A stretch of DNA of 64,000 nt from Anaerolineales bacterium (GTDB lineage: Bacteria > Chloroflexota > Anaerolineae > Anaerolineales > Villigracilaceae): assembly GCA_035574015.1 (NCBI GenBank), contig DATLZK010000024.1:19594-83593 (forward strand), given 5' to 3'. Below, piece by piece: positions 2,888 through 32,495 of the stretch; positions within the stretch are counted from its first letter, which is position 1; every line of letters begins with the position of its first letter. The notes under the pieces were generated by a model. That model was given only the letters and a program-made list of their open reading frames with translations, ran no database searches and was not told where the DNA came from. The position numbers and the translations under genes are program-made.

Positions 2888-4243
2888 ATGGATCGTCTGT
2901 ATGCTCTTTCGCCTTTGGATGGACGCTACGCGGACTCGAGCGCGCCCCTCGCAGACTACTTTTCTGAATTTGCCTATCTACGTGATCGCCTTCGCCTCGA
3001 ACTGGACCTTTTGCCGGCTCTTTCCAAAACAGGCATTCTTCGCCCCCTGACCGATTCCGAATCCGCCCAAATCGAAGCGATCAAGATTGGCTTTTCCACC
3101 GCCGACGCGGAATCCATCCGTGCCTACGAAAGGCAAACGCGACATGACGTAAAAGCCATCGAATACTTCCTGCGCGAACGTCTACACGGCACCTCCTTGC
3201 AAGACCTTCTCCCCTGGTTGCATTTTGGGCTTACTTCTGAAGACGTGAACAATCTCGCGCTTGCTCTGGCACTGCGCAATTCACGTGACCTTGTTCTGCT
3301 GCCGGCATTGGACGAATTGCTGGAGGCAATACGCGCCTTTGCCAAAAAGACGCGCGCCCTGCCCATGCTGGCGCGTACACATGGTCAATTCGCCGTACCT
3401 ACCACGCTTGGAAAAGAATTTGCCGTCTTCCTGGCGCGTTTGCAAAAGGTACGTCAGGAGATCGCCGCGCACCGCTTCGAGGCAAAACTCACGGGAGCGG
3501 TGGGAAACTTCAACGCGCTGCAAGCCGCCGCGCCACAGGTGGACTGGCTGGCATTCAGTAAATCTTTTGTTCAATCGCTTGGCTTTGAACCCAACCTCAT
3601 CACTACACAAATTCTTCCATACGAGAACTGGATTCGTTATTTCGACATGTTGCGCATGATCAATACCATCCTCATTGATCTGGCACAGGATGTTTGGCGT
3701 TATGTCAGTGATGGTTACCTCAAGCAGGCGGTCCTGGAAAACGAAGTTGGCTCTTCGACCATGCCGCAGAAGGTGAACCCGATTGATTTCGAGAACGCAG
3801 AGGGTAATCTTGGGATAGCCAATGCGATGTTTGCGCATTACGCGCAAAAACTGCCGGTTTCGCGCTTGCAGCGCGATCTCTCCGATTCAACGGTACGCCG
3901 CACGTTTGGCACGGCGCTCGGTCACACACTGGTTGCATGGAAGAGCCTGCGCAGCGGAATGAGCCGCCTCGCGCCGGATGAAGAAAAGATGAGGGCAGAG
4001 TTGAACGCGCATTGGGAGGTCATCGCCGAGGGAGCGCAAACGATTCTGCGCGCAGCAGGCAGAGAGGACGCGTACGAGTCGCTCCGGCTTCGGACGCGCG
4101 GACGCGTCTTAACGGAATCCGATTTCAGGTCCTGGCTCGAAGCGCTCGATGTGGATGAGGTGACGCGCGCACGTCTGCAAAGTCTCTCCCCAGAAACCTA
4201 TCTTGGGCTTGCCGTCCAATTGACTGATGAAGTGACCGGTTAG
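2888..4243 (+). CDS. purB: Adenylosuccinate lyase
   Basis: N-terminus 'LSPLDGRYADS' (E. coli PurB has 'VSPVDGRYGDK'). Fumarate-lyase signature 'GSSTMPQKVNPIDFEN'. A GAGGAGG Shine-Dalgarno sits upstream. Confidence 0.95.
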   Translation: MDRLYALSPLDGRYADSSAPLADYFSEFAYLRDRLRLELDLLPALSKTGILRPLTDSESAQIEAIKIGFSTADAESIRAYERQTRHDVKAIEYFLRERLHGTSLQDLLPWLHFGLTSEDVNNLALALALRNSRDLVLLPALDELLEAIRAFAKKTRALPMLARTHGQFAVPTTLGKEFAVFLARLQKVRQEIAAHRFEAKLTGAVGNFNALQAAAPQVDWLAFSKSFVQSLGFEPNLITTQILPYENWIRYFDMLRMINTILIDLAQDVWRYVSDGYLKQAVLENEVGSSTMPQKVNPIDFENAEGNLGIANAMFAHYAQKLPVSRLQRDLSDSTVRRTFGTALGHTLVAWKSLRSGMSRLAPDEEKMRAELNAHWEVIAEGAQTILRAAGREDAYESLRLRTRGRVLTESDFRSWLEALDVDEVTRARLQSLSPETYLGLAVQLTDEVTG

Positions 4244-5352
4244 CCCGTCCCCTCCACAAACGCTTGGAATTCCACGAGAAAGCGTTCTTTGTTGAAGCGT
4301 TGCGCGTTTTGCGTGAGATCAGCCGTTCGAAAGTGCGGCAGATATTTCTCGAATCGTTTTACCGCTTCGATCACACCGTCAGCGGACTGGTCATCGAAGA
4401 GCAGACCGGTTACACCATCCAAAACGGTTTCCGCTGCGCCTCCACGCCCATAGGCAAGGACCGGGCATCCCGCCGCCTGTGCTTCGACAATGGCAATGCC
4501 AAAATCCTCTTCCGCGGCGCAAACGAAACCGCGCGCCTTATTCATGAACTTCACGACCTCTTCATCCGATACATATCCCAAAAAGTGAACTGCCGAATTT
4601 GCCATGCGTTTTAGGCGCGGCAGTTCGGGTCCATCGCCAATCACAACGAGTGGAAGATTCAATTTTGAAAAAGCCTGGACGAGCAGATCAACCCTTTTGT
4701 GCGCTACTAGTCTGGTGACCGTCAGGTAGTACTCCTCGCGAGGGGAATGACTATGGAAGCGCTCCACTTCAACGGGAGGATAAATGATCGTGGCACTGCG
4801 CTGATAGGCTTGAGCGATGCGTTGTGAAATGGCTTGCGAGATAGCGGCAAACTGATGGACGCGCGAGGCGGCCCGACGATCCCATTTGCGAAAGTACTGC
4901 ATGAAGCCATCGAGGAGAAAATTTTTGCGTCGGCGCGTTCCATCCAGATTAATGTCAGTCCACGCATAGCGCATGGGGGTGTAGGTGTAGGAAAGATGGC
5001 GCGCTCCGTTTTGATTCGTGACGCCGTGCGCCACAGCATAACTGAAGCAAACGACGAGATCGTAGGCACGCAAATCGAAACGCTCGATGGCTGAGGGCAT
5101 GAGCGGCAGAAACAAGCGGTGATGGGTGTGGGCGAAGGGCAACTCATCGAGCCAGGACATGTGAACCTTGCGACGCGCCAGCGGTGTGTGGACAAAAGCC
5201 TTTTTGTTGTAGATGAGCGTGAAGACCTCCGCGCATGGATACGCCTCCAGTGCAGTGAAGAGTACCTTCTCTCCACCGCCCAACGCGGGAAGCGCATCAA
5301 TGACAAAGGCAATACGTGGTTCAGATTTCAAGTCTGTGTCCTCCTGATCCAT
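4240..5352 (-). CDS. Glycosyltransferase, GT4 (GT-B fold) family
   Basis: N-terminus 'RIAFVIDALPALGGGEKV'. C-terminal 'EEDFGIAIVEAQAAGCPVLAYGRGGAAETV' carries the E-x7-E GT4 motif. I chose the start at the internal ATG (MDQEDT); the longer ORF to 5484 runs into the upstream gene. Confidence 0.8.
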   Translation of the reverse strand: MDQEDTDLKSEPRIAFVIDALPALGGGEKVLFTALEAYPCAEVFTLIYNKKAFVHTPLARRKVHMSWLDELPFAHTHHRLFLPLMPSAIERFDLRAYDLVVCFSYAVAHGVTNQNGARHLSYTYTPMRYAWTDINLDGTRRRKNFLLDGFMQYFRKWDRRAASRVHQFAAISQAISQRIAQAYQRSATIIYPPVEVERFHSHSPREEYYLTVTRLVAHKRVDLLVQAFSKLNLPLVVIGDGPELPRLKRMANSAVHFLGYVSDEEVVKFMNKARGFVCAAEEDFGIAIVEAQAAGCPVLAYGRGGAAETVLDGVTGLLFDDQSADGVIEAVKRFEKYLPHFRTADLTQNAQRFNKERFLVEFQAFVEGTG

Positions 5353-8300
5353 TTTGTCCAAGAACAAGGGATTTTTCGCCGCTCTGCCCTGCCCAGAGAC
5401 CGAGAAGCAGTCCAAGCATGAGTCGTCCTGGAGCAAGTGTCCAAAGATAATGATCGAACAGGCTGATGATTCCAAGACCGGCAAGAGCCGCGCCTGTCAG
5501 AATGGCAGAGGGAGCCCTGCTTTCGCTCATGCTCCACGTGATGGAAAGATAAAGACCCAAAACGAGGAGTAAACCGCCGATGCCCAATTCAGTGCCTGCC
5601 AGCAAGAAAATGTTATGGACCGGTTCGACAATATAGCCCACACCGGCACGTCGTGAAAGTTCGATGATAAAGGAGCCAATGCCAACCCCTGTAAGTGGAT
5701 ATTCGCGCATGATTTGGATGGCTTCTTGGGTCAGCCAGGCGCGCCCAACGAACGAAAACTGTTCGGAGATGGTGACAATGTTTGTCGTGCGAGCCTGAAG
5801 CAGATGACGATAAGGGAGAATCGTAAGGGTCACACTCAAGATTGCCACAATCAGAAGGAGGTGGAGATGTAGGCGATTTAAATATTTTGATTTCAAAATC
5901 AGAATAAACAAAAAAACAATCATTCCCAGCCAGGCAGAACGGGAGAACGTCAATATGAGCAGGGAGATGCCCAGGGCGAAGAGAATCAAAACGGGATGCG
6001 CGGCTCTTCTTCCCGCAAGAGAAAGCCCAACCGGACCCAATAGTGAGACGAACACAAGTCCACCGAGAAGGTTGGGATGCGGCAGAGTTCCATAGGCGCG
6101 CAAGACGCGCGTTCCATCCGCTAGGGAGACGACGACCGAACCACGCACAGATGGATCAAGCAGGCCGGGCCATTTCAACTCAAGCGGCGCGAGAAAATCC
6201 GTGGACTGCAACGCAAAACCGACAAAACCGGCAATGAGTTGGAGGCTCAGCGCCGCGCAGAAGCCGTATAAGGTGGGCTTCCATGCCTCGCTCCATTCAC
6301 GGAGGGATAGGACAAAGAGAAAGACCAGCCAGAAGTGAAAGGAAATATAGGCAGAGGTGCGCCACTCTTTTGACCAGAGGAGACTGAGGGAGGAAAGCAG
6401 AAAGAGGAACAAGAGCGGAAAGAGAAACGAAGAAGGATGACGGGGAAATTTCTCAACCTTGGAACGGAGGCTCGCGAGGAAAGACGGAACAAGAAAAGAT
6501 GAAAAAGAAAAGAAGGAGGAGAATTGGGTAATTTTCACCGACAGCCAAAGAATCACCGCAATCAAAACCAGGGCATCGGTGAGGAAGAAGAGGGCATGGG
6601 TATAGGTAAAGTAAACGCGTCCATGTGGAAACTCCGCAATGACGCGATAATACCAAAAGCACAAACTCAGTGGAATCAAACCAACAAGAAAAGCATGGGC
6701 GCCGCGCAGGATTCTCTCGCCTCGAAGAGGCGCAAGGCGCAGTGTTCCAAGCGAGAGGGTTGTAATCAACGAAAGCATGGGGAAGACACCCCACGCAAAA
6801 GAGGTTATCGGTTTTGTTCGCGGCGGTGTGGAGGGCTTGGGGGGCACTGCGTTGGGGTTCTCGTAAACGAGGACCCCGTTTTCGAGCGTTTTCAATTTGA
6901 TCCAACCCTGTTTTTCCAAGACCGGAACAAAGGGGCTGCGGTGAATCTCCTTCCATTTCAAAGGAATGGCTTCGACAACATCAGGGTTCACAAAGCCCCA
7001 GCGCACGCCATATTCATCGGATGCTTGCAAGATCGGTTCGATGGCAGAAATTCCTTTGGTCGCCCAATATACAGTGTCAATTTGACCAATGCCGCTTTCG
7101 CGCAGTTCGGGAAGTTGACGTGCTGTGTGGTAACTGCCGTCAAGCGTAGTGGCTTTGGTGAGTAGATTCAAATAAGCAAATTGATCGCCAAAGCCGAATG
7201 TGAGGTACCGATAGTGGGCATGATCCGCTTCGTTCAAAAAATCAACGATGGGCTGCATATCAATCGGCTTGGGTTGGAGAGGGAGGAACAAAGGCGTGAG
7301 CCATACAGCAAAGGCGGTGATGGCAAAGAAGGAAAAGACCAGGGCGGGGATCAGGTTCCTTTGGCGCGCGGCAGGCTTCGGCTGAGTCACGAAGCGAAGT
7401 TTCATCCGCGTAAAAAGAATCCCGAAGAAGACGGTCAGGATCAGGCTTGCCCAAAAGGCAAAGCGTTCATAAGTCAGCCATTCCCAAGCCTTTCCAAAAA
7501 AGAGGCGCGGCAGTGGAGTCGTCCCGCCCAGGCCGAGCAAAAAAAGAAGAATGCACGAAACAAGTAGAGCGATGAAGCGCGCCGACCATTGGCGCATGAG
7601 AAATGGAATGACACCCAGAAGGGGACCATAGAGAGGAAAGAAAAATACGGCAAAGGCCAGCGGGCTTTCAAAGAAGTTGTGCCGTGAGAGATGATCAATG
7701 GGGGTCTGCATGGTTTGATCCATGCCCCATTGCCAAAAGGGAAAGACGACAAGGATGGAGACGAGCACAGCAAGAAAGCCGATCAGCACAAAACGCAGGA
7801 GGAATGATTGCCATTGAATAGTTCGAGGGGTTTGAAGGATAACATTCGAGACAACCGCGAAAAACAGAAAGGGATGAATCAATAATACAGCATGATGTGA
7901 GGCGGCTGTTGTGGCATAAAGCGAAATGGTGAGCAACAGATTGTGAAAGCCGCCCTCACGCAGAAAGCGATTCAGGCTTGCCGCGCTGAATAACGCCAGA
8001 AGCGTGCCTGCGAGAAACGGCAATTGTCCAAAAATGTAGGCAGTAACATAGACTGATACAAGAAGTGCCGAGGCAAGGCTGGCATAGGACGCGGAGGTTT
8101 TGCCTGTGAAAATTCGACTGAAGGCATAAATGGCAAACGGATAGAGGCTGGCAACGATCCACAAAACGAGGGCGAATGCTCGATCAAAGCCAAGGAGGGG
8201 AATCCACAACGCGATGAGTTGATGAATCAGCGGTGGGTAAGAAACGACAGAAAAGCCGGCATACCAGCGCGTCTCCCACAACGAAAACCAGTTCTCGGCA

Positions 8301-8434
8301 TAGTGATTCGCAAAGAGCATGTGAGTATACGCGTCATAACTCAGACGATAACGCGCAGTGAGAATGAATAAGCCATGAAAGAGAAAGGCAAAAAATGCGG
8401 CAAACCAAACGCGACGGGGCAACATGATGTTCAC
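5321..8434 (-). CDS. 1037-aa polytopic membrane protein: GT-C-like N-terminal half fused to an O-antigen ligase/polymerase (Wzy_C) C-terminal half
   Basis: More than 20 hydrophobic segments. The N-terminal part has an ArnT/PMT-like layout with 'SYDAYTH' after TM1. An S/F-rich low-complexity linker follows (FSSFFSFSSFLVPSFLASL). The C-terminal part has Wzy_C hallmarks 'TFSRSAWLGMIVFLF' and 'PVHNIFLLAGTELGIGGLLL'. The GTG start overlaps the stop of the upstream GT4 gene (GTGA). Confidence 0.8.
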   Translation of the reverse strand: MNIMLPRRVWFAAFFAFLFHGLFILTARYRLSYDAYTHMLFANHYAENWFSLWETRWYAGFSVVSYPPLIHQLIALWIPLLGFDRAFALVLWIVASLYPFAIYAFSRIFTGKTSASYASLASALLVSVYVTAYIFGQLPFLAGTLLALFSAASLNRFLREGGFHNLLLTISLYATTAASHHAVLLIHPFLFFAVVSNVILQTPRTIQWQSFLLRFVLIGFLAVLVSILVVFPFWQWGMDQTMQTPIDHLSRHNFFESPLAFAVFFFPLYGPLLGVIPFLMRQWSARFIALLVSCILLFLLGLGGTTPLPRLFFGKAWEWLTYERFAFWASLILTVFFGILFTRMKLRFVTQPKPAARQRNLIPALVFSFFAITAFAVWLTPLFLPLQPKPIDMQPIVDFLNEADHAHYRYLTFGFGDQFAYLNLLTKATTLDGSYHTARQLPELRESGIGQIDTVYWATKGISAIEPILQASDEYGVRWGFVNPDVVEAIPLKWKEIHRSPFVPVLEKQGWIKLKTLENGVLVYENPNAVPPKPSTPPRTKPITSFAWGVFPMLSLITTLSLGTLRLAPLRGERILRGAHAFLVGLIPLSLCFWYYRVIAEFPHGRVYFTYTHALFFLTDALVLIAVILWLSVKITQFSSFFSFSSFLVPSFLASLRSKVEKFPRHPSSFLFPLLFLFLLSSLSLLWSKEWRTSAYISFHFWLVFLFVLSLREWSEAWKPTLYGFCAALSLQLIAGFVGFALQSTDFLAPLELKWPGLLDPSVRGSVVVSLADGTRVLRAYGTLPHPNLLGGLVFVSLLGPVGLSLAGRRAAHPVLILFALGISLLILTFSRSAWLGMIVFLFILILKSKYLNRLHLHLLLIVAILSVTLTILPYRHLLQARTTNIVTISEQFSFVGRAWLTQEAIQIMREYPLTGVGIGSFIIELSRRAGVGYIVEPVHNIFLLAGTELGIGGLLLVLGLYLSITWSMSESRAPSAILTGAALAGLGIISLFDHYLWTLAPGRLMLGLLLGLWAGQSGEKSLVLGQNGSGGHRLEI

Positions 8435-9648
8435 TCTATGGATGGGAGGGGAATACGCTTGGTTTTTCCTCTCTTTTCGAGGACATAATTGAAAGCATGG
8501 AGGTATTTCAAACAGGTGACTTCGGGACGCATCCGCTGGATGGATTGAAAATTATATTCTGCCTGCTGTCGCCGTCTTTCGGGGGAATCGAGCAAGAGGC
8601 GAAGTGCCGTACATAAGCTTTCGACGTTTCCTTTCTGAAAAAATTCGACGCACAAGCCACTTTCGACAGCCACTTTGTAAATTTCTTTCAAATCGGAGGC
8701 TACAACAGCGCGCCCCCACATGGCGGCCTGGTACAGCACAGACGATGAACCTGTCGAAGCCAAATAGGGCAGAACTACAATCTGCGCACGACGAAACAAC
8801 GACATCACGTTCTCCTCAGGAACCTGTCCAAGCCATTGCACGCGAGGCGTCCCATTGAAGCGCGCTTTCAAATCTCGCGCATAACCGGGAAAGCGCACAT
8901 GCTCTGCGCCGGCAATCGTCAGGCCCAATTGAGGATACTCCTCACACAATCTGTAAAAGGCTTCGAGCAACAATTCCAGACCTTTGAAAGGCGTGAGCGT
9001 CGTAAAGAACAACAACTCTTGTGAATCCGATTCGGGTAAAAAGTTCGGCTCATGATAGGCACCAAGGGGAATATGAACGCAATCTATCTTGCGTTTGCTG
9101 AGCCAGTCGGCGTAATAGCGCATGGTCAAACAGAGTAGATCCGCCTGCGCCGCGACGAGGGTCAAAAGCCGCGCGCCCCATGATGCAAACGGTCCGCCCG
9201 GCGCGCGCAAGAGGCGTAAATCGGACAGTTCAACCAGCTCATGCAATGTGACAACGGTGGGAATGCCCATACGCTGTGTAAACATTGGAAGAAACCAGCC
9301 CAACACATTTACCCATGGCGAGCGACCAAAGACGGACGCACCCAAATTGAACCAAACAAGATCGGGCTGCAAACGCATCACGCGGGACAAAATGGCCTGC
9401 GGCGCGTTAAACTGATCGGGCACCCAGCAATATTCGACTTCCGTTAAACCGAGATGATTAGGCGTTGTTCCGTACGGACATCCCCCTGCCAGCACAGTCA
9501 GGCGCGTGAACACGTTCGCTTGCGCCAGCGCACGTGTAACATAATAACCATATTGTCCAATACCAGTGATCGTCGGAGGAAACGGGCTGACAATGGCAAG
9601 ATGCATGAGGGGATTTGACAGAACCTCCCACAAGTTGTATAGTTTCAT
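8431..9648 (-). CDS. Glycosyltransferase, GT4 family
   Basis: 'HLAIVSPFPPTITGIGQYGYY' N-terminus and a C-terminal GT-B half ('VVLPYLASTGSSSVLYQAAMWGRAVVASD'). An alternative start is the ATG at 9606 (MHLAIV). Confidence 0.75.
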   Translation of the reverse strand: MKLYNLWEVLSNPLMHLAIVSPFPPTITGIGQYGYYVTRALAQANVFTRLTVLAGGCPYGTTPNHLGLTEVEYCWVPDQFNAPQAILSRVMRLQPDLVWFNLGASVFGRSPWVNVLGWFLPMFTQRMGIPTVVTLHELVELSDLRLLRAPGGPFASWGARLLTLVAAQADLLCLTMRYYADWLSKRKIDCVHIPLGAYHEPNFLPESDSQELLFFTTLTPFKGLELLLEAFYRLCEEYPQLGLTIAGAEHVRFPGYARDLKARFNGTPRVQWLGQVPEENVMSLFRRAQIVVLPYLASTGSSSVLYQAAMWGRAVVASDLKEIYKVAVESGLCVEFFQKGNVESLCTALRLLLDSPERRRQQAEYNFQSIQRMRPEVTCLKYLHAFNYVLEKRGKTKRIPLPSIE

Positions 9649-9706
9649 GAAATAGTACGCTTGACGTTAGTGGAACGGATTGGGCGCGCTCGATGATTCT
9701 TTGAAC

Positions 9707-10579
9707 ATGTTATCCCAGGCAATCTTACAAACGGTCATTTATTCGGATGTTTTCGATTATCCACTAACCGCGCTAGAAATTCATCGCTATCTTACAGGGG
9801 TCAAAGCATCTTACCCGGAAGTGCTCCAAGCACTGAAAGAACATCCGCTCATCCGGCAAAGCGGAGAATACTTCATCCTCCCTGGGCGTGAGGACCTCAT
9901 TGCCACGCGCCAACAGCGCGAAGCGCGTTCGCACCAATTGCTACCATCTGCAATCCGCTACGGGCGCATCCTGGGCTCCCTGCCGTTTGTGCGCATGGTC
10001 GCCTTGACCGGTTCGCTTGCAGTGATGAACGTCTCCGCAGATGCCGATTTCGATTACCTGCTAGTCACGCAAGCCGGCCGATTGTGGACAGCGCGCGCCT
10101 TCGCTGTCACATTCGGGCGCCTCATGCGTCCATTTAGGCATCGAATCTGTGTGAACCTGCTTCTCGCCGAAAGCGCGCTACATTGGTCTCAGCATGACCT
10201 CTATTCAGCGCGCGAGTTATGTCAGATGATTCCTATCACAGGGCTAGATGTGTATCAAAGGTTGATGGAAGCCAACGAATGGGCGCAGGCATTTTTACCG
10301 AATGCGTTTCCACCCAAACCCATAGCGAAAGAGAAGCAGGCTCTGGCACTCCAGGCCCTTCTCGAACTTCCCCTGCGCGGCGAACTCGGCGACCGCCTCG
10401 AGCGATGGTTAATGACCTACCAACTACGTCGCATCGCGCGCCACTGGGGAACAGGTGAGGAGACTGCCTTTGGTGCCAATATCTGTCAATCCAATTTTCA
10501 CAATCATCGCAGAGGAACGCAGGAAACATTCGAAAAGAAAATGAATGCCTTGCTCAGGCAGGCGAGGGTGAGAGAATGA
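9707..10579 (+). CDS. Hypothetical protein with a nucleotidyltransferase-fold-like motif
   Basis: 'LTGSLAVMNVSADADFDYLLV' fits the pol-beta NTase pattern G-S-x(9-13)-D-x-D. The N-terminus ('YPLTALEIHRYL') looks like a winged helix. Its stop overlaps the next start (ATGA). The track start at 9680 is a TTG. Confidence 0.55.
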   Translation: MLSQAILQTVIYSDVFDYPLTALEIHRYLTGVKASYPEVLQALKEHPLIRQSGEYFILPGREDLIATRQQREARSHQLLPSAIRYGRILGSLPFVRMVALTGSLAVMNVSADADFDYLLVTQAGRLWTARAFAVTFGRLMRPFRHRICVNLLLAESALHWSQHDLYSARELCQMIPITGLDVYQRLMEANEWAQAFLPNAFPPKPIAKEKQALALQALLELPLRGELGDRLERWLMTYQLRRIARHWGTGEETAFGANICQSNFHNHRRGTQETFEKKMNALLRQARVRE

Positions 10580-12021
10580 CTCAAATCCTCCTCGGTCAAT
10601 CCTACTATTTGCGTTTCGACCCCAAACTCTGGCGGGCGATGATGCCCTATCCGCCACTGGGTACACTCTACGCCGCGAGTTGGCTGCGTCAGCATGGATA
10701 TGAGGTCGCCATGTTCGATGCGATGCTGGCGGAATCAGAAGAGGAATGGGCAAAGGCTTTGGATGAACACAGGCCGCGCTACGCTGTTATCTATGAAGAT
10801 AACTTCAACTATCTTTCCAAGATGTGTCTGCTTCGGATGCGCGAAGCCGCGTTCAAGATGATCCGCATGGCAAAGGAGCGTGGATGCACGGTCATTCTGT
10901 GCGGTGCAGATGTAAGCGACCACTACGATAAATATCTCAAACAAGGCGCGGATTACTGTCTCATCGGCGAAGGGGAGGAAACGTTGCTCGAATTGCTGGA
11001 TCAACTTTCGGGTAAGAGAGAAGCGGGGCTTGACTCCATCCCTGGTCTCGCGTACCGATCTTCCCCGCACGCCTCCCATTCTTCAATCGCCTGCACCCCT
11101 CGCCGCCCCGATATTACAAACCTCGATAAACTCCCCTTCCCCGCCTGGGACCTTGTGGACATCGAGAAATATAAATCCATCTGGCTGAAGCGACACGGCT
11201 ATTTTTCGATGAATATGGTTACCACGCGCGGCTGTCCTTATCACTGTAACTGGTGTGCCAAGCCAATTTGGGGTCAGCGCTACAATTCGCGTTCGCCGGA
11301 AAATGTGGTCGCGGAGATGAAATGGATCAAGGAAACATACGCGCCCGATCACATCTGGTTTGCGGATGACATTTTGGGATTGAAGCCAGGCTGGATCGAA
11401 AAATTTGCCGCGCTGGTCAACGAAGCCGATGCGGTCATTCCGTTCAAATGTTTACAGCGTGCGGATTTAGTGAACGAGAAGATCGCCCGCGCCCTGGCAA
11501 AGGCAGGGTGTAAAACCGTTTGGATTGGCGCCGAGTCTGGCTCGCAAAAGATTCTAGATGCCATGGAGAAGGGCGATCAGGTAGAGGACATTTATCGCGC
11601 TACCGCGCTGTTGCATCAGAACGGAATCGAAGTGGGCTTCTTCTTGCAGTTCGGCTATCCCGGTGAAACCTGGGAGGACATTCAAAAGACTTTGAAGATG
11701 GTCCGCGAGTGCGCACCCGATGACATTGGCATCTCGGTCTCGTACCCGCTACCTGGCACGAAATTCTACGAGCGCGTCAAAATGGAATTAGGCGAAAAGC
11801 AAAACTGGATTGACTCGGAAGACTTAGCAATGCTTTATCGCGGTCCATTTCCAACAGCGTTTTACCGCGTCCTACATAAAAGAGTGCATCATGAATTTCG
11901 CCTGAGGCAGGCATGGCGCAAACGCGATTGGGGGAAAATTCCTCGAACGCCTTATTACCTGGCGGGTATGCTTCTCTCTGAAATCTCTTTGCGCACGTGG
12001 CTGACAAAGCCGGCTCTTTGA
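10576..12021 (+). CDS. B12-binding-domain radical SAM protein (class B rSAM)
   Basis: The N-terminal Rossmann-like B12 domain ('YPPLGTLYAASWLRQHGYEVAMFD') is followed by 'TTRGCPYHCNWCAKP', a CxxxCxxC 4Fe-4S motif. Confidence 0.9.
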   Translation: MTQILLGQSYYLRFDPKLWRAMMPYPPLGTLYAASWLRQHGYEVAMFDAMLAESEEEWAKALDEHRPRYAVIYEDNFNYLSKMCLLRMREAAFKMIRMAKERGCTVILCGADVSDHYDKYLKQGADYCLIGEGEETLLELLDQLSGKREAGLDSIPGLAYRSSPHASHSSIACTPRRPDITNLDKLPFPAWDLVDIEKYKSIWLKRHGYFSMNMVTTRGCPYHCNWCAKPIWGQRYNSRSPENVVAEMKWIKETYAPDHIWFADDILGLKPGWIEKFAALVNEADAVIPFKCLQRADLVNEKIARALAKAGCKTVWIGAESGSQKILDAMEKGDQVEDIYRATALLHQNGIEVGFFLQFGYPGETWEDIQKTLKMVRECAPDDIGISVSYPLPGTKFYERVKMELGEKQNWIDSEDLAMLYRGPFPTAFYRVLHKRVHHEFRLRQAWRKRDWGKIPRTPYYLAGMLLSEISLRTWLTKPAL

Positions 12022-13565
12022 TGAGTATGAAAGCTGATCTCTATCTGCGCGTGCGAGAAAAAGAAGGGCGTCTTTATTCGGATGATATTGTCGTACACCT
12101 GCCTTCAATTCCAGACGGGCATCCGCTTGCAAACGAATGGCGCGCGCGTTCTCTCTCCGCTTCGCGCCTGACCCGTTACCTGGCGCGCCGACCCCAGCCG
12201 CTCACCATCCTTGACCTGGGCTGTGGCAATGGCTGGCTTTCCCATCACCTAAGTCAAATCGGGGCACAGGTCATTGGCATGGATGTGAATCATTTCGAAT
12301 TGGCGCAGGCAGCGCGGGTGTTTTCATCGCGTTCCAATCTGCTCTTCCTCGAAGGGGACATCTTTTCCGCGCCTTTTCCTCCCGCAGTGTTCGATATCAT
12401 TGTGCTTGCCAGCGTCATTCAATACTTTCCCGACCTGAACCGCTTGCTCCATGCCTTACTCCCCTTTTTGAAACCCGATGGAGAAATTCACATCTTGGAT
12501 AGTCCCCTCTACCCTTCTCAAGAGGAAAGAGAGGCCGCCGTTCAACGCACGCGAAGGTACTACAGCGAGCTGGGCTTTCCTGAAATGAGCGAACAGTATT
12601 TTCATCACTGCCTGTCGGAACTAAACGGTTTTTCTGTGAGCCGTCTGTATCATCCTCGCTCCTTTTTAGCGCGCCTGAAGCGTGTGCTTCGAGTGACCGA
12701 TTCCCCTTTCCCCTGGCTGGTTGTCCGTCATCCGCAATTGCAAATTTCCCTCATCGCCGAAGCCTTCTCGCGTACGGCTGAAAAATACGATGCTTTCGCA
12801 GAAGACCATCCGCACCTGACGCGCATGAGGAACAAGGTGTACGCGCAGGTCGAACGCTTTGTTCCGAAAGGGGCGCACATTCTCGAATTGAATTGTGGCA
12901 CCGGCACAGATGCAATCGAGCTGGCGCGGCGCGGTTACCGCATCCACGCCCTGGATATTGCCCCTGGCATGTTAGCGCGCCTGGAGAAAAAAGTGTTGGG
13001 GTTTGGTTTGCAGGAACGCGTCACCTTTCAACAAGGTTCTTTCCTGGAATTGCATCATGTTCGCGGCGGTCCTTTCGACGCGGTCTTTTCCAACCTGGGA
13101 GGCCTCAACTGCATTCCCGATCTTTCGCCAGTCATTGCACAACTCCCAAGCCTGTTACGGCCAGGCGGAACGATTATCTGGACGTTGATGCCACACATCT
13201 GCCTATGGGAAATGGCTGAAGCCCTGCGCGGTCACTTCAAACTAGCATTTCGACGATGGACGCGCGGTGCTGTGCGCGCTCATCTCGAAGGGTTGTATTT
13301 CGACGTGTATTATTTTTCACCGCGTCAGGTCATTGCCTGGTTTGGAGAAGATTTTGAAACGCTTGCGCTCGAAGGTTTATCGGTCATCACCCCCACTGCC
13401 GAAAATAAGGACCTCGCCAAAAAATTCCCGGCGCTCTACCGCCTCCTCTGCTGGCTCGATGACCGATTGGCGCCGCGCTATCCCTGGCATGGCTGGGGTG
13501 ACTTCTTCATCCTCACACTGCGCTATCAGCCGAAACACGCTTTCTCTCCATCTCACCCGAAGTAA
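12021..13565 (+). CDS. Tandem (two-domain) class I SAM-dependent methyltransferase
   Basis: It carries two separate motif-I regions: 'ILDLGCGNGWLS' and 'ILELNCGTGTDAIELARRG'. The ATG at 12021 overlaps the rSAM stop (TGATG); the track start at 11997 is a GTG inside the rSAM gene. Confidence 0.85.
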   Translation: MSMKADLYLRVREKEGRLYSDDIVVHLPSIPDGHPLANEWRARSLSASRLTRYLARRPQPLTILDLGCGNGWLSHHLSQIGAQVIGMDVNHFELAQAARVFSSRSNLLFLEGDIFSAPFPPAVFDIIVLASVIQYFPDLNRLLHALLPFLKPDGEIHILDSPLYPSQEEREAAVQRTRRYYSELGFPEMSEQYFHHCLSELNGFSVSRLYHPRSFLARLKRVLRVTDSPFPWLVVRHPQLQISLIAEAFSRTAEKYDAFAEDHPHLTRMRNKVYAQVERFVPKGAHILELNCGTGTDAIELARRGYRIHALDIAPGMLARLEKKVLGFGLQERVTFQQGSFLELHHVRGGPFDAVFSNLGGLNCIPDLSPVIAQLPSLLRPGGTIIWTLMPHICLWEMAEALRGHFKLAFRRWTRGAVRAHLEGLYFDVYYFSPRQVIAWFGEDFETLALEGLSVITPTAENKDLAKKFPALYRLLCWLDDRLAPRYPWHGWGDFFILTLRYQPKHAFSPSHPK

Positions 13566-13607
13566 CTCAACTCTACAGGATTACGCTACAAGCAAAGGAA
13601 TCCGCGC

Positions 13608-14384
13608 ATGAGTTTCCCCAACTACCCTGAGAAGCATCAACTCGATTCGTTGCTGAGTGGAAACGAAATGATCGAGTTCCGCAACAGACTGGGACGCCTT
13701 CCCAAAATTGAACCACCCGAGGCACTTCTCCTTTGTCTGCATCGCGGCTTGCCCGAAAGAATGCGCTGGAGGATCCCGATCCGATATGTGGGACGCATGA
13801 TGGGCGATTTGTACCTTGTCAAAAAGACCAACCGGCGTGTGGCTGTGCTAACTAACTTCGGCATCGGAGCGCCGGTGGTCACTGCACTGGCTGAGGAGTT
13901 TATTGCCTGGGGAGTAAGGCAAATCGTTTCGATCTCATGGGGTGGGGGGATCTCCGCCGAATTACAGGCGGGGGACATCGTAATTTGCGGACGCGCTCTC
14001 CGCGACGAGGGAACATCCCATCATTATTTGCCCTCCGGAAAGTATGTAGAGGCAAGCCAGAGACTCGTAAATCGTTTGAGCGAAGCATTGCAAGCACGAA
14101 ATGTTCCTTTCCACATAGGCACAACATGGACAACCGATGCTCCCTATCGCGAGACGCGCGAGGAAGTGAAACAATATCAATCCGAAGGCATCAAGACTGT
14201 GGAAATGGAAATCGCCGCCCTCTATGCACTGGGTCAGGTACGCCGCGTAGAAGCGGCATCAATCGTCGTTGTCGGCGATAGCCTTGCCAAACTTCGCTGG
14301 CAGGCGCCTGCAGATGTGCGTCCCATCGAGCGTTCACTCGAAATGGTTTACCGCGCTGCCATTGACGCACTAAACAATGCTTGA
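13608..14384 (+). CDS. Nucleoside phosphorylase, PNP_UDP_1 family (uridine phosphorylase / nucleosidase-like)
   Basis: 'NFGIGAPVVTALAEEFIAWG', 'GDIVICGRALRDEGTSHHY', 'WTTDAPYRETREE' and 'VEMEIAALYALG' follow the family-1 phosphorylase pattern. Confidence 0.8.
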   Translation: MSFPNYPEKHQLDSLLSGNEMIEFRNRLGRLPKIEPPEALLLCLHRGLPERMRWRIPIRYVGRMMGDLYLVKKTNRRVAVLTNFGIGAPVVTALAEEFIAWGVRQIVSISWGGGISAELQAGDIVICGRALRDEGTSHHYLPSGKYVEASQRLVNRLSEALQARNVPFHIGTTWTTDAPYRETREEVKQYQSEGIKTVEMEIAALYALGQVRRVEAASIVVVGDSLAKLRWQAPADVRPIERSLEMVYRAAIDALNNA

Positions 14385-14441
14385 GGCAATCAATCTTTCG
14401 TAAGTGGCTAATGATTTGTAATGAAGAGAGGAGAGATATTT

Positions 14442-15239
14442 ATGTGGAGACCAATCTGCCTCCTTACCTTTTTTCTCCTCGTAACTGCCTGTGCCAATGT
14501 CCCTTCAGCGATGCAAACGCCGCCATCCTTCACACAGACAGCATCGCCAGAAAAGACATCTGAAGACCTCGGGGGGGCATTCCGTGAGGAATGGGATAAA
14601 TTGATTGAAGAGATCAAAGCGCAGGGCATACAAAACTCGGATGTCCTGCGTGCCATGCGAACCGTCCCCCGCCATAAATTTGTGCTTCCCGAATATCTTG
14701 ATCAGGCTTATGAAAATCATCCTCTTCCCATCGGCTATGGGCAGACCATTTCACAACCGTTTATCGTTGCGTGGATGACCGAACTACTGGAATTGCAACC
14801 CGGCGAAAAGGTGTTGGAAATCGGTACAGGGTCAGGTTATCAAGCCGCTGTCCTTGCCGAATTAGGATATGTGGAGATATACAGCGTTGAGATTATCCCT
14901 GAATTGGCAGAACGCTCGGCGGCGTTGTTGAAGGAATTGGGATATGATGAAGTTCGCGTCAAACAAGGTGATGGGTATTACGGTTGGGCTGAACATGCTC
15001 CCTTCGATGCGATTCTCGTGACCGCCGCGCCGGATCATCTTCCCGGACCCCTTGTTGATCAATTGGCAGAGGGCGGGCGAATTGTCATCCCCATCGGTCC
15101 ACCGGGCTGGTATCAGAGTTTGTGGAAGTTTGTCAAAGAGAACGGGGATTTGAAAGCATATAATCTCGGCGGCGTAATGTTCGTGCCACTTACCGGTCCC
15201 GGCGTCGAAACGCATCATGGCGAGCCGCCGGTGCCATGA
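14442..15239 (+). CDS. pcm: Protein-L-isoaspartate O-methyltransferase with an N-terminal lipoprotein-like signal
   Basis: 'GYGQTISQPFIVAWMTE' and 'VLEIGTGSGYQAAVLA' are Pcm motifs. The N-terminus is 'MWRPICLLTFFLLVTAC' (lipobox V-T-A-C). The ATG at 14442 is preceded by GGAGAG. Confidence 0.9.
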   Translation: MWRPICLLTFFLLVTACANVPSAMQTPPSFTQTASPEKTSEDLGGAFREEWDKLIEEIKAQGIQNSDVLRAMRTVPRHKFVLPEYLDQAYENHPLPIGYGQTISQPFIVAWMTELLELQPGEKVLEIGTGSGYQAAVLAELGYVEIYSVEIIPELAERSAALLKELGYDEVRVKQGDGYYGWAEHAPFDAILVTAAPDHLPGPLVDQLAEGGRIVIPIGPPGWYQSLWKFVKENGDLKAYNLGGVMFVPLTGPGVETHHGEPPVP

Positions 15240-17664
15240 TCCACGCGCCCGCGTAGCAAAGCGCGCCAATCTTCAACACCCAACTAAACCCAAACGTCAG
15301 AGCCAGCAGCGCGGCAAAGATGGATGAAACAACGGACATTGCACCGTTCACTGCCCACACCCACGAGATGCTTTCGTCCTGCGCTTCGTTTTCGACGCCC
15401 GCGGCTTGGTCCCGTTTTATCAGGCGAATCCCGGCCGGAAACGGGATGCCCATCAAAAAGCCAAGCGGCGAGAGGACGAGGAGGGTCAGACCAAGCCGAA
15501 GGGTCAGAGGCAGGCCCAAGGTCAAAGCGAAGAAGCGGGGAAGCAAAGCAAGAGAGAGAAGTATGAGGATAACGAGAATGGCGAGCGAGGGACGAAGTGG
15601 GACGCGGTCGCTCCATCTGCTGCCCAACCCAGAGAAGAAGAGCAAGGAGAATAAGACCACAGTGAAAGCATAGGCGGGATTACCGAGATAGAGAATGAAA
15701 CGTTGAAGAAGAGGGATTTCAACTAAAAGAAAGGCAAGCCCCAATAAACCAAAATAAACAAGATTGTGAAGCCGAAAAGGTGAGAAGGCACGGCGCTGTG
15801 ACCGTTTGAACATTGCTACAGGAAAAAGGATGAGCCCAGCCGCAAGAAGAATGGCAAGCACAAGCAATGCGACCACCACAAAATATCCCGCGCCACCAAA
15901 AGGCTGCCATGCTCGGCCAAATTCAGCAATGACCTGTGGTGCCTGCGCCCATTTGAAATAATGTCCAAAAAACGGATGATCATCGGTGGGCGGGCGGATG
16001 TCGTAATCGTATTCGTCATAGAATTTTTCGCGCGGGCTTGTCTCGAGCAGATTGAGGTATGTCTGGTAATACTTCGATTCGGGCAGAATGTTGTATTGAT
16101 TCGTTTCTGCGGGGTGAACATTGGGCGCATAAGTAAGGTCAAACGCACGTTCGGCAAGGAAAGCGCGCAGGGAGACTAATTCATCGTTCGAGAATGCACC
16201 GTTTTTGAGAAGGATGGTTGCCGTGTTGAAGCCACGAAATGCAACGAGTTGTTCGCGCGGATTAACATCCTTCCTTTCCAATGCCGTGACTGCAAGTGCA
16301 AAGAGTCGCAAATCTTCACTGGGAGGGTCTTGCAACCAACGCGTGGCAATCAGCAATCCACCAGGGGTGAGATGCGAAAGCGCGTCGGTGAACGCCTCGA
16401 CCGTGTAGCGATAGTCTTCCATAAGGGTGTACGCGCCGGAGCGCACGGGATGAAACGATGAGGTAAGGGAAAGCACAATCACATCATATTTTGCTTGCGT
16501 GCGGTGAAGGAAACTTCTCTCGGACTCGACATGAACTTCTACGCGCGGGTCTTTGTAAATCGGCACAGCCTCGACGATGAGCGGGTTGATTTCAACGGCT
16601 GTGATTTCTCCCGAACTCAGCGCGAGCGCGGTGAAAATGTCCAAGCCGCCGCGCGGTTCGAGAATCAATGTGCGGGCATTGGGGCGGAGATGAAATGCGA
16701 GAGAAGTGGGGAGGTAGGAGGCGAAGGTGGGGGGAGAGGGTTGAGGGGATTGGGGGGATTGGGAGAATTGGGAGGATTGGAGGATTGGGCTGAGGTCGTC
16801 GCCATCTATGAACAGACCATCCAATGGCGGAAGGGGCTGCAGGTAACGATAACTGAGTCCAGGTATGGAATGTATCGCTTCACTACGTACGACATCCACA
16901 CGTGAGAAGGCATTCCACCGACGGTGAATGACCTGCGCACCGGGGTATTGCAGGGCATAGGAAAGGCTCTTATATGGAGAAATGCGGAGTTCGAGAAAAC
17001 CAAAAGAGGGATTGTCGGTAAAACGTAAGCCGAGGTCGAGAAGGGAAAAAAAGAGCAAAGCAGAGGTCGCAAGAAAAAGAAAAGTGGGAGATCGGAGGGG
17101 AAAAGAGGTAATTAGCCCCGCCAGCAGAGCAAGCGCGAGGCTCAAGGTCACCATGCCCTCCGCGCCGAGATAGGGAGGTGTAAACAGCGCGATGACACAT
17201 CCCACCGCCGCGCCAAACAGGTTGATTGCATAAGTCGTTCCAGCAGAGTGAGGGAAGATGTTCAATAAAAACCCAAGTGCCATGCCGCTGAAGAAGAATG
17301 GCGCAGCGAGGGCAATATAGTGCAAGGTGAGAATCCAAACCTGACGGCGATCCCAGGCAATACTGAACGAGTCAAAGGGTAAATGATTGACCAGCAAGTA
17401 AGCAGTCAGAATGCTGACGCCCATTGCAAATCCCAATTGACCCAAACGCATTTTTGGATCTCCCTTTCGGAGCGCAGGGAAGAGCGTCAAGGCAGTACCA
17501 CTGGCGCCAAAACCTAAAAGGGCGATACTGACAATCATGAAGGCGAAGTGATAAAACTGCGCGACAGAAAAAAGCCGGGTCAGGTTGATTTCAAATGTCA
17601 GCGTTGCTGCGGAGAGGAGGAATAGGCTCAATAAAATACTGCGCGTTCCATTTGTCAATTTCAT
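15190..17664 (-). CDS. Spermidine synthase-like (aminopropyltransferase-fold) protein embedded between two multi-TM membrane domains
   Basis: 'LTFEINLTRLFSVAQFYHFAFMIVSIALLGFG' is the N-terminal membrane module. The central part has a class I MTase/spermidine synthase-like fold ('TLILEPRGGLDIFTALA...EITAVEINP', 'YDVIVLSL'). The C-terminus has six or more TM segments. The start is the ATG at 17664 (MKLTNG); the longer ORF to 17871 translates a dispersed repeat. Confidence 0.8.
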   Translation of the reverse strand: MKLTNGTRSILLSLFLLSAATLTFEINLTRLFSVAQFYHFAFMIVSIALLGFGASGTALTLFPALRKGDPKMRLGQLGFAMGVSILTAYLLVNHLPFDSFSIAWDRRQVWILTLHYIALAAPFFFSGMALGFLLNIFPHSAGTTYAINLFGAAVGCVIALFTPPYLGAEGMVTLSLALALLAGLITSFPLRSPTFLFLATSALLFFSLLDLGLRFTDNPSFGFLELRISPYKSLSYALQYPGAQVIHRRWNAFSRVDVVRSEAIHSIPGLSYRYLQPLPPLDGLFIDGDDLSPILQSSQFSQSPQSPQPSPPTFASYLPTSLAFHLRPNARTLILEPRGGLDIFTALALSSGEITAVEINPLIVEAVPIYKDPRVEVHVESERSFLHRTQAKYDVIVLSLTSSFHPVRSGAYTLMEDYRYTVEAFTDALSHLTPGGLLIATRWLQDPPSEDLRLFALAVTALERKDVNPREQLVAFRGFNTATILLKNGAFSNDELVSLRAFLAERAFDLTYAPNVHPAETNQYNILPESKYYQTYLNLLETSPREKFYDEYDYDIRPPTDDHPFFGHYFKWAQAPQVIAEFGRAWQPFGGAGYFVVVALLVLAILLAAGLILFPVAMFKRSQRRAFSPFRLHNLVYFGLLGLAFLLVEIPLLQRFILYLGNPAYAFTVVLFSLLFFSGLGSRWSDRVPLRPSLAILVILILLSLALLPRFFALTLGLPLTLRLGLTLLVLSPLGFLMGIPFPAGIRLIKRDQAAGVENEAQDESISWVWAVNGAMSVVSSIFAALLALTFGFSWVLKIGALCYAGAWIMAPAARHDAFRRRDR
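16745..16790 (-). repeat. Short tandem repeat (five units of about 8-9 nt, CCAATYC core on the coding strand) inside the spermidine-synthase-like gene
   Basis: The plus strand reads 'GGGGATTGGGGGGATTGGGAGAATTGGGAGGATTGGAGGATTGGG' and encodes 'SQFSQSPQSPQPSPP'. Confidence 0.8.
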
Positions 17665-17759
17665 CTTGTCTCTCCTGCTTCGCGAGAGAGTTGATTCCAG
17701 TTTAACACAGGCGGATTCCTGCTTCAATAAAATCTGCGATGTGCTCTGTTGAGAAGATA

Positions 17760-17869
17760 CCCCCCACTTTCCTTCACTCCGACCTCTCTCCCAGTGGGAG
17801 AGGGGGTGAGGGCGAAAAGCAATGCCGACGACAATCCTTTGTCCATGTTTGCAACAGAACAAGTTAAAC
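17760..17869 (-). repeat. Dispersed intergenic repeat, family A, copy 2
   Basis: Its reverse complement aligns with 1413..1530 over about 105 nt with few mismatches. It lies about 95 nt upstream of the spermidine-synthase-like gene. Confidence 0.9.
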
Positions 17870-17902
17870 AAAAAACGGGATAGTCTTTACAGACCATCCC
17901 GT
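17868..17902 (-). terminator. Intrinsic terminator after the NCS2 permease gene
   Basis: The minus strand reads ACGGGAT-ggtctgtaaagact-ATCCCGT followed by TTTTTGT, 20 nt after the stop. Confidence 0.7.
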
Positions 17903-23138: not shown

Positions 23139-23352
23139 GCTATTCTCCTCTTGCAAATTGTGGGAAAGGGGCTGACATCAGGATATGAACCATGTCAAAT
23201 TGTGGATTGAGTGAGTCACCTCCATGTGCATGAAACATGAACCGAGCGAATTTCCTTTTACTGCCCTCTAGCAATTCAATTCTAGGGTAATCCTGACAAA
23301 AAAACAAGATACTTGTAACCATTTCAGGTTAACGTCTCGTTTAACCGGCTTG

Positions 23353-31990: not shown

Positions 31991-32351
31991 AAATACCCAA
32001 GTCTATCATCCTCGCAACAGAGCAGTTTGAACTTCCTTTTTCATCACAAATGAACAGAGATAAGAAAGAGCGTTTTTATATAAGCGTTACAAAAAATGTT
32101 CAGCGTGTTATTCTACATTTCCATATTCCATCCTAAAAGTATTGGGTGGTTAGCAATCTTTATATTTGATTCAATTTGAAATCACAATGAAGTTAACTGT
32201 ATACAGTGTGATGATATAAGATCAAAACATCAATCTTTTATCAATAAATGATTGATGGTGCTTGCGAAATTTTAAAGTTAATTCATCATCAAAAACCTTT
32301 ACACGAATCAAATAATGGATACAATCTATATTGCTACATTTCATTGTTACA

Positions 32352-32380
32352 TGATTCAATTGAAATGTTTTATTGAATCA
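32352..32380. promoter_or_regulatory. 9-bp perfect inverted repeat in the AT-rich island (candidate protein-binding site)
   Basis: TGATTCAAT-N11-ATTGAATCA. A related 'TGATTCAATTTGAAATCA' lies at 32167..32184. Confidence 0.4.
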
Positions 32381-32495
32381 GCAATGAACAACTCCAAAAA
32401 AACATCGCTTTGCAAAATGCGATGCAACATAACAATCAAGATTGAACAATGCCAGTTGAAAGCATCTTGATTGCAACGACGAAAAGGACACGACA

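Follow-up and report, generated by a model that had tools for sequence, protein, structure and literature searches.

What a radical S-adenosylmethionine (rSAM) enzyme with a B12-binding domain might be doing beside genes for glycan assembly, and with which partners, is the question raised by a locus of an Anaerolineales bacterium (Chloroflexota; contig DATLZK010000024.1 of assembly GCA_035574015.1). The 64,000-nucleotide (nt) stretch of this contig that was analysed, positions 19,594 to 83,593 of its forward strand, is called the window here and coordinates refer to it. Four genes lie close together on its + strand, namely G1 (the first gene), the rSAM gene, G3 (a fusion of an N-type methyltransferase, Mn, and a C-type one, Mc) and G4 (whose product resembles purine nucleoside phosphorylases and so is called PNP-like), and divergent from them stand genes for glycosyltransferases of the GT4 family and for a Wzy_C-type membrane protein. 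Judged by comparison of sequences, the balance tilts towards the region 4240-14384 being one conserved locus that would build and decorate a cell-surface glycan or glycolipid, the sugar being tailored in the cytoplasm, probably by methylation. The co-conservation of GT4 and Wzy_C, the layouts in which Wzy_C shares the operon, the natural fusions GT4~rSAM, G1~rSAM and rSAM~methyltransferase (~ marks a protein fusion) and the predicted solubility of the enzymes together point to sugar tailoring on a cytoplasmic, probably lipid-linked, intermediate before its export. The genes are as follows.

9680..10579, + strand: G1, predicted to begin with a winged helix, followed by a nucleotidyltransferase core of the Pol-beta type (G102-S103, D114-x-D116) and a C-terminal part made of helices; alternative start ATG 9707
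10576..12021, + strand: rSAM enzyme of class-B architecture (PF02310 and PF04055; C220-x3-C224-x2-C227)
12021..13565, + strand (alternative start 11997): G3, with an N-type methyltransferase at about 12021-12770 (BioC-like) and a C-type one at about 12771-13565 (UbiE/CpaM-like)
13608..14384, + strand: G4, of the NP-I (PNP_UDP_1) fold, with Ser108...Trp111 in place of R-x-G-S/T, and with Glu201 and Asp224 kept
8431..9648, - strand: GT4_a, divergent from G1 (Glycos_transf_1, 66 bits)
5321..8434, - strand: Wzy_C (O-antigen ligase/polymerase-type) membrane protein of 1037 amino acids (aa) (PF04932, 56.5 bits, residues 818-959)
4240..5484, - strand: GT4_b (Glycos_transf_1, 100 bits); each Anaerolineales locus that extends far enough has an orthologue of it upstream of G1

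A sequence-only reading of this DNA had described the four genes, their tight packing and their three junctions, and all of this was borne out by direct reading and by Pfam and NCBIfam scans. G1 and the rSAM gene share an ATGA overlap (10576-10579), the rSAM gene and G3 a TGATG overlap (12019-12023), and G3 ends in TAA (13563-13565) and is followed by a 42-nt spacer with AAAGGA and by the ATG of G4 at 13608, the stop codon of G4 being 14382-14384. The divergent GT4, Wzy_C and GT4 neighbours given in the same reading were also found again with Pfam. By a hydrophobicity scan G1, the rSAM enzyme, G3, G4 and the GT4 proteins lack true membrane segments and are predicted to be soluble, which fits action at a cytoplasmic stage.

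Conservation of the locus in Anaerolineales

A scan with G1 through one genome per species gave 233 genomes that carry it, and the best 80 loci from them were examined; nearly all are labelled Anaerolineales or Chloroflexota, and the same gene set recurs in them. Counting for each feature only the loci with enough flanking sequence (51, 57 or 63 by feature), the rSAM gene directly follows G1 in 63 of 63, a methyltransferase is present in 50 of 51, the PNP-like gene in 47 of 51 and a Polysacc_synt flippase in 46 of 51, with GT4 upstream in 57 of 57 and Wzy_C likewise in all 57. Co-conservation of the four genes in related genomes, on which the sequence-only reading had made its proposal depend, thus holds across these 51 to 63 loci. 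Within Anaerolineales the rSAM enzymes are 65-92% identical and the G1 proteins 40-60%.

The upstream genes come in two layouts. In type I, which is that of the window and of 22 of the 57 loci, GT4-GT4-Wzy_C (about 1000 aa)-GT4 is divergent from G1, and in type II (30 of the 57) G1 is immediately preceded, on its own strand, by a smaller Wzy_C and by a GT2 membrane protein that has the QxxRW motif. The orders downstream vary too, among them R-Mc-flippase-PNP-Mn, R-flippase-PNP-Mn, R-PNP-Mn-flippase and R-Mn~Mc-PNP (R being the rSAM gene), and membership is kept throughout; a gene order that is shuffled while the membership is kept argues for function rather than for inherited synteny. A functional link to the neighbouring glycan genes, as earlier supposed, is supported by this co-conservation, by the operon shared in about half of the relatives and by the GT4~rSAM fusions. 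In one related locus (P0034) a gene for an acyl-carrier-protein phosphodiesterase (ACP_PD) stands at 12374-12979, between the rSAM gene and the methyltransferase.

The core trio in other phyla

An exhaustive search with the rSAM sequence through 1.84 billion representatives returned 4215 matches at E<=1e-30, and the source names of the relatives include Elusimicrobia, FCB group, Bacteroidota, Bryobacteraceae and KSB1. The order G1-rSAM-Mc is found in 80 metagenome loci, and, going by neighbouring genes or by source names, the trio occurs in loci of Elusimicrobia, the FCB group and Acidobacteria. Beyond Anaerolineales the rSAM that follows G1 is 37-71% identical to that of the window (median 56%; for other phyla a range of 50-71% is also given) and G1 is 23-44% identical. 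From these comparisons the core unit is G1, the rSAM enzyme and a UbiE/CpaM-like methyltransferase. The sequence-only reading had taken the whole operon for a self-contained module, a claim that the comparisons do not support in that form: the evolutionary unit holds a single methyltransferase beside G1 and the rSAM, and in other phyla it goes without the PNP-like gene and sometimes without glycan genes nearby.

Protein fusions tie the members to each other. Seven representatives are G1~rSAM fusions (P0125, P0132, P0161, P0177, P0185, P0193 and P0213) and six join the rSAM to a C-type methyltransferase (P0123, P0124, P0127, P0130, P0173 and P0204), and in P0121, of 910 aa, a full GT4 (Glyco_transf_4 and Glycos_transf_1) is joined to B12-binding and Radical_SAM domains, the rSAM part being 61% identical to the enzyme of the window. 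Glycan genes, counted by Pfam scans in the distant loci, adjoin the trio or its parts in several arrangements: Wzz-Wzy_C-Mn-G1-rSAM-Mc (L097, L111), GT4-G1-rSAM-GT87-GT9 (L133), the trio with GT9, GT87, a metallophosphoesterase and a flippase (L102, L104), rSAM-Mc-flippase-GT4 (L112), and Wzy_C-GT4~rSAM-SPASM rSAM-Mc-Mn with G1 divergent (L167). On an Elusimicrobia contig a divergent GT4 lies beside rSAM-MT-G1~rSAM-Mc, MT being a methyltransferase.

A set of soil loci (L105, L130, L134, L140, L145, L150, L153, L165 and similar ones) carries two to six paralogous B12-domain rSAM enzymes and a SPASM rSAM, together with NTP_transf_5, an HPr-kinase-like protein, methyltransferases, a flippase, Wzy_C and GT87, and some soil loci encode Mn~G1 fusions of about 655 aa. 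A DUF5777 protein (membrane-bound beta-barrel domain) follows a G1~rSAM fusion and methyltransferase in two unrelated contigs (L084, 10001-13888; L170, 7090-10967).

The radical SAM enzyme and the methyltransferases

The rSAM protein exceeds the cut-offs of both PF04055 (91.1 bits) and PF02310 (42.2 bits, cut-off 32.1) and carries the motif CPYHCNWC (C220-P-Y-H-C224-N-W-C227). A Rossmann-type B12-binding domain with a CxxxCxxC core is the class-B layout, and the sequence fits it. Only the three cluster cysteines are broadly conserved in the family, and so the enzyme has no auxiliary cluster. None of the curated NCBIfam models that were tried is passed (score against cut-off, in bits: HpnJ 137.5/577.6, the ladderane-type lipid model 131.6/360, BchE 126.2/481, PhpK 112.7/600, AprD4 89.8/500 and HpnR 73.2/650). 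Membership in a characterised subfamily, hopanoid and bacteriochlorophyll methylases among them, had been named as what would undo the sequence-only reading; with all scores, including those for BchE, HpnJ and HpnR, far below their cut-offs, the enzyme is placed in none of the families tried. Hopanoid, bacteriochlorophyll and ladderane assignments were rejected on these scores and on the absence of the context genes, and the annotations of homologues are either generic or, as with BchE and YgiQ, probably mistaken.

In G3 the class-I methyltransferase matches fall into two distinct stretches (residues 63-154 and 288-385), each with a glycine-rich SAM motif (LDLGCGNG and LELNCGTG), and Methyltransf_25, _11 and _31 each match both of them. 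Against the curated models it scores 101.8 of 180 for CpaM, 100.3 of 185 for BioC and 66.6 of 216 for UbiE, passing none. The two complete domains of the "double methyltransferase" described earlier are therefore there, but what joins them is a lineage-specific fusion of two different families: Mn~Mc occurs only in the window and in three relatives (L018, L047 and L055), and most relatives have two separate genes.

G1, the partner of the radical SAM enzyme

G1 probably starts at TTG 9680, giving 299 aa, rather than at ATG 9707, because the N-terminus then aligns with homologues and the public records also have 299 aa. It has no Pfam or NCBIfam match, and it has 2260 homologues in the database; among the 120 listed none carries a Pfam domain, and the names shown are all 'hypothetical protein'. 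A G-S...D-x-D motif like that of nucleotidyltransferases had been noticed from the letters, and it has held up: G102-S103 and D114-F-D116 are invariant in the 18 sequences of the Anaerolineales alignment, and in 47 distant homologues the signature is kept at some 80-87% (G in 40, the first D in 41 and the second D in 38). An AlphaFold2 model (predicted local distance difference test, pLDDT, 74) shows an N-terminal winged helix, a beta-alpha-beta core with strands flanking the motif, and a helical tail, a predicted nucleotidyltransferase fold, and the Pol-beta motif hG[GS] ... [DE]h[DE]h on a beta-alpha-beta-beta core is present.

With MNT antitoxins and with AadA and ANT(4') G1 has in common the G-S...D-x-D core and, by its model, the fold, and with AadA and ANT also a helical domain after the core; the family profile matches the MNT antitoxin 7ae2 at E 0.012. 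It differs from them in its extra N-terminal winged helix, in having no HEPN partner and in its obligate rSAM neighbour or fusion partner, and the similarity is weak (E 2e-3 to 0.2). An identity as a defence or toxin-antitoxin MNT protein was rejected, there being neither a HEPN partner nor a PADLOC match; the PADLOC scan for anti-phage defence gave only generic methyltransferase (mad2) and rSAM matches and none for G1, G4, the GT4s or Wzy_C. Membership of NTP_transf_5 (PF14907) was rejected as well, since hhalign against eight PF14907 proteins gave E 0.064 (probability 0.9) over the motif region only and Pfam gives no match.

G4, an accessory PNP-like protein

G4 matches PF01048 at 117.9 bits, and its AlphaFold2 model, built from an alignment of database homologues, has a pLDDT of 90. 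The best structural match by Foldseek is the 5'-methylthioadenosine (MTA) phosphorylase of S. solfataricus (1jds; template modelling (TM) score 0.77-0.86, E 2e-19), followed by hexameric PNP and Udp. With 1jds and the hexameric DeoD and Udp enzymes it has in common the fold, the E-M-E ribose-binding motif and the catalytic-type Asp, and ribose-binding Glu201 and catalytic-type Asp224 are invariant in its family. It departs from them at the phosphate site, where profile alignments place IRYGTT, IRVGSA, VRVGTA and IRVGTC in the four best phosphorylases of the PDB; the G4 family has l-v-l-i-g-l-a-G there and the window protein V-S-I-S-W-G, so that the Arg and Ser/Thr of R-x-G-S/T are replaced by hydrophobic residues. 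It departs from them also in invariant residues of its own (R132, D133, H139, Y140 and W174-T-T-D-A-P) and in curated scores that all stay below cut-off, with 69 of 230 for DeoD and 57 of 280 for Udp. No MTAN/MtnN protein is among the top 50 structural matches, and the MTAN model NF004079 gives 30.4 bits against a cut-off of 169.

With the phosphate motif replaced, no MtnN among the top structural matches and its own invariant residues, G4 is neither of the two types, Udp or MtnN, between which the sequence-only reading had proposed to decide. A conventional uridine phosphorylase, which that reading had named as a refuting outcome, and equally a conventional DeoD, is ruled out by the missing phosphate motif and by a gene that stays in the operon despite the changes of order. 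G4 would most likely be a hydrolase of an adenine nucleoside (for example 5'-deoxyadenosine, MTA or S-adenosylhomocysteine, SAH) and not a phosphorolytic enzyme. Removal of the by-products of the rSAM and methyltransferase reactions, as earlier proposed, may be its role and would fit the kinship to MTA phosphorylase, yet G4 is no core member and has lost the phosphate site. It is confined essentially to Anaerolineales and is for that reason to be seen as accessory.

A possible pathway and its alternatives

In the scheme that is preferred here, soluble GT4s would build a lipid-linked oligosaccharide or a glycolipid head group on the cytoplasmic side; G1, the B12-domain rSAM and the class-I methyltransferases (here fused as G3) would then modify a sugar of this intermediate, installed by the neighbouring GT4s; and the product would be passed to the Wzy_C-type membrane protein, a Polysacc_synt flippase also being involved in most relatives. 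As to the chemistry, the rSAM would methylate an unactivated carbon and the SAM methyltransferases would then O- or N-methylate. This is the leading proposal because most characterised class-B rSAM enzymes methylate unactivated carbons, some of them on sugars, as GenK and MoeK5 do (PMC12931638), and by analogy C-methylation by the window enzyme is plausible. G1 may be the obligate partner of the rSAM either through nucleotidyl transfer that activates or tags the substrate or through presenting the substrate to the rSAM, and G4 would act as an Anaerolineales-specific accessory enzyme.

Several observations weigh against this scheme. The window carries no Polysacc_synt flippase in all its 64 kb, though 46 of 51 relatives have one, and an initiating phosphoglycosyl transferase was identified neither in the window nor in related loci. 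Away from Anaerolineales the glycan context thins out: a G1~rSAM-MT unit lies amid haem genes in L084 (hemA, cobA-hemD, hemB and hemL, with the unit between hemB and hemL) and amid unrelated genes in L169, with no glycan genes within 6 kb, and among the 121 pooled neighbouring open reading frames (ORFs) of 27 non-Anaerolineales loci GT87 and GT9 recur only three times each and Wzy_C twice. G4 is absent from the module there, with one homologue nearby, in L108. The closest solved rSAM structures are remote (AprD4, PDB 6fd2, 76.5 bits; the glutamine C-methyltransferase QCMT, PDB 9ccb, 74 bits), and AprD4, the closest, does not methylate and binds no cobalamin despite having the same domain. For G1 the Foldseek matches to MNT antitoxins, AadA/ANT and HalB are weak, at best E 2.4e-3 with probability 0.99 and TM about 0.23-0.45.

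How far the rSAM itself methylates is where one serious though improbable alternative begins, namely that it rearranges, contracts or dehydrates a sugar as HpnJ, OxsB and AprD4 do, methylation being left to the class-I methyltransferases. In every case the rSAM comes with a dedicated SAM methyltransferase, so that methylation does not depend on the rSAM; HpnJ (137 bits) ranks first among the NCBIfam models and the cobalamin-free AprD4 among the solved structures; and HpnI with HpnJ sets the precedent of a glycosyltransferase and a B12-type rSAM that remodel a newly attached sugar (PMC13459092). However, the scores are far below the cut-offs (137 against 578 and 90 against 500), methylases of the QCMT, PhpK and Sden_1168 types score about equally, and the characterised class-B enzymes are mostly methylases. 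What G1 contributes opens a second alternative, which is given a minor share of the probability: G1 would nucleotidylate a sugar hydroxyl or phosphate, the rSAM would act on the adduct, and in Anaerolineales G4 would remove the base of this handle and not by-products. The precedent is fosfomycin biosynthesis, Fom1 cytidylylating, Fom3 methylating the cytidylyl-HEP and FomD hydrolysing (PMC8158854). The genes of G1 and the rSAM are in every case neighbours, translationally coupled or fused, with G1 coming first; G-S...D-x-D is invariant in Anaerolineales and mostly kept in the 47 distant homologues; and G4, which scores 66 bits with AMP-nucleosidase models against 69 with DeoD, keeps its nucleoside-binding and catalytic residues and not the phosphate site. 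Against this, the fold evidence for G1 is weak, no handle-removing enzyme accompanies the trio outside Anaerolineales, nucleotide specificity is unreadable from sequence, and the cytidylyltransferase domain of Fom1 is of another fold class (sugar-nucleotidyltransferase-type) than the Pol-beta-type G1. A fuller version, a hitherto undescribed three-enzyme machine in which G1 attaches a nucleotide handle to a sugar carried on a lipid, a cobalamin rSAM C-methylates or rearranges this sugar before export and in Anaerolineales the NP-I protein removes the base, is distinctly unlikely; if true, radical-modified surface glycans would form a new class, present in Chloroflexota, Elusimicrobiota, the FCB group and Acidobacteriota.

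The target could instead be a membrane lipid or polyprenyl carrier, methylated in mid-chain or at the head group of a glycolipid anchor, with the glycan genes adjoining because of the same lipid. The trio does stand alone in some genomes, lipid-modifying class-B rSAM enzymes are known, 'lipid biosynthesis B12-binding/radical SAM protein' ranks second among the NCBIfam models (132 bits), a GT2/GT21-like enzyme typical of glycolipid synthesis is found in type II operons and near the Elusimicrobia locus, and one relative has the inserted acyl-carrier-protein phosphodiesterase; but recurrent genes of fatty-acid, isoprenoid or hopanoid metabolism are absent from the examined loci, the rSAM is without a membrane segment, and in P0121 it is fused to a soluble GT-B glycosyltransferase, so that a lipid target is doubtful. 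Maturation of a ribosomally synthesised and post-translationally modified peptide by the rSAM and methyltransferases is disfavoured as very improbable. It would draw on the soil relatives, whose sets of several rSAMs, SPASM, NTP_transf_5 and HPr-kinase-like genes are common in peptide-maturation clusters, and on a C-methyltransferase model that gives the rSAM 79 bits; but the cut-off of that model is 282, the same soil clusters hold flippase, Wzy_C and GT87 genes, and the window operon, with its overlaps, its 42-nt gap and less than 60 nt upstream of G1, has no space for a precursor gene. Most improbable, and disfavoured likewise, is a tetrapyrrole enzyme, a BchE-like cyclase or methylase, for which speak the name 'anaerobic Mg-protoporphyrin IX monomethyl ester cyclase' given by JGI to several homologues, the one G1~rSAM fusion between hemB and hemL, and a BchE score of 126 bits; that score is far below the 481-bit cut-off, the haem context was met once, and neither the 81 Anaerolineales loci nor the window hold photosynthesis or haem genes.

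Relation to known systems

Sugar tailoring of a surface glycan, the reading preferred here, has partial counterparts. In Fom1/Fom3/FomD the logic is alike, nucleotidyl transfer, the action of a B12-domain rSAM and nucleotide cleavage following one another, and the class-B architecture is the same (PMC8158854), whereas here phosphonate genes are absent, the NP-I fold of G4 is unlike FomD and the context is glycan assembly; the PhpK-type P-methylase model gives the window rSAM 113 bits against a cut-off of 600. In the hopanoid HpnH/HpnG/HpnI/HpnJ pathway a PNP-family protein (HpnG) is again found with rSAM enzymes, and HpnJ, a B12-type rSAM, remodels the sugar put on by the glycosyltransferase HpnI (PMC13459092), HpnJ being the top NCBIfam match of the window rSAM. 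The scores separate the two systems (HpnJ 137 against 578, HpnG 33 against 187), there is no HpnH-type rSAM here, and the window and related loci have no squalene-hopene cyclase or other hpn genes. GenK, GenD1 and MoeK5 (C-methylases) and AprD4 (a diol dehydratase) have the domain architecture in common with the window enzyme and have carbohydrates as substrates, but those are secondary metabolites (aminoglycosides, moenomycin) and not Wzy-type surface glycans, and none of these enzymes has a partner of the G1 type.

No published description of the system was found in full-text literature searches, and the proteins of the locus pass no curated rSAM, phosphorylase or methyltransferase equivalog that was tried. 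It is best described as an uncharacterised variant, a class-B rSAM family with an obligate nucleotidyltransferase-fold partner and an attached methyltransferase, recruited to surface-glycan loci, that resembles known rSAM tailoring logic.

Neighbouring genes, signals and the rest of the window

Of the parts that make up a Wzx/Wzy-dependent glycan assembly locus (glycosyltransferases, a Wzy_C-type polymerase or ligase, a Wzx-type flippase and an initiating phosphoglycosyl transferase), the window has the first two. A true start near 5325 is probable for GT4_b, since its homologues run to about 360 aa and the listed ORF reaches into the end of the gene for Wzy_C. Some 19 hydrophobic segments of the 1037-aa Wzy_C protein make up two polytopic blocks (8-387 and 575-994) with a loop of about 190 aa between; its N-terminal block has no family match, and type II Wzy_C proteins have only about 450-500 aa. 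Upstream of G1 one candidate signal for the operon was noted.

9615..9643, + strand: sigma-70-like promoter candidate, TTGACA, 17-nt spacer, TATAGT (11 of 12 consensus positions; a consensus match only)

Sigma-70-like sites are no more frequent in the region than in shuffled sequence, and a terminator scan of it likewise gave no more matches than shuffled expectation. Searches of transcripts (one metatranscriptome and one small putative RNA run) returned contig pieces of 36 nt and 583 nt only and are uninformative on co-transcription; the 583-nt contig, of uncertain library type, matches window 13940-14522 at 100%, from the 3' half of G4 into the PIMT gene. The source organism recurs in hot-spring metagenomes.

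The PIMT gene after G4 (14421-15239) and an 893-aa membrane protein (15190-17871, - strand) are placed outside the cluster, since neither is co-conserved in relatives. The latter shows some 13 hydrophobic segments and, over one stretch, a faint resemblance to spermidine synthase, and two relatives encode a Spermine_synth membrane protein of 733 aa downstream of the cluster. Two further rSAM genes of the window are housekeeping and unrelated to the cluster, an ELP3-like rSAM with GNAT (44912-46702, + strand) and a MiaB/RimO-like one with UPF0004 and TRAM (62179-63516, - strand). Elsewhere a 1078-aa protein (19920-23156, - strand) combines Big_5 Ig-like and endonuclease/exonuclease/phosphatase domains; the stretch 32001-34000, around a D-Ala-D-Ala-ligase-like ATP-grasp gene, is lower in GC content, at 0.465 where the rest has about 0.52-0.55; two ORFs in succession, 809 and 343 aa long (38283-41740, + strand), have no Pfam match and are directly followed by a GAF-GAF-GGDEF diguanylate cyclase (41819-44278); and SecA (51713-55732, + strand) is unusually long at 1339 aa, its P-loop and wing/scaffold domains each matching as two stretches, which suggests large insertions.

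Significance

The comparison defines a testable core unit, held together by three kinds of natural fusion and spread over several phyla, and within it G1 gains a first structural assignment for a family of more than 2000 proteins whose displayed names are all 'hypothetical protein'. G4 would represent an NP-I subfamily that is annotated 'uridine phosphorylase' and is predicted, from its sequence, to be unable to bind phosphate canonically. Anaerolineales abound in hot springs, sediments and activated sludge, and little is known of their cell envelope; the tailoring of Wzy-type surface glycans by radical SAM enzymes has hardly been explored. If the rSAM enzyme installs C-methyl groups or makes rearranged sugars, both the modification of the glycan and the way in which a class-B rSAM enzyme employs a partner protein would be of a new type.

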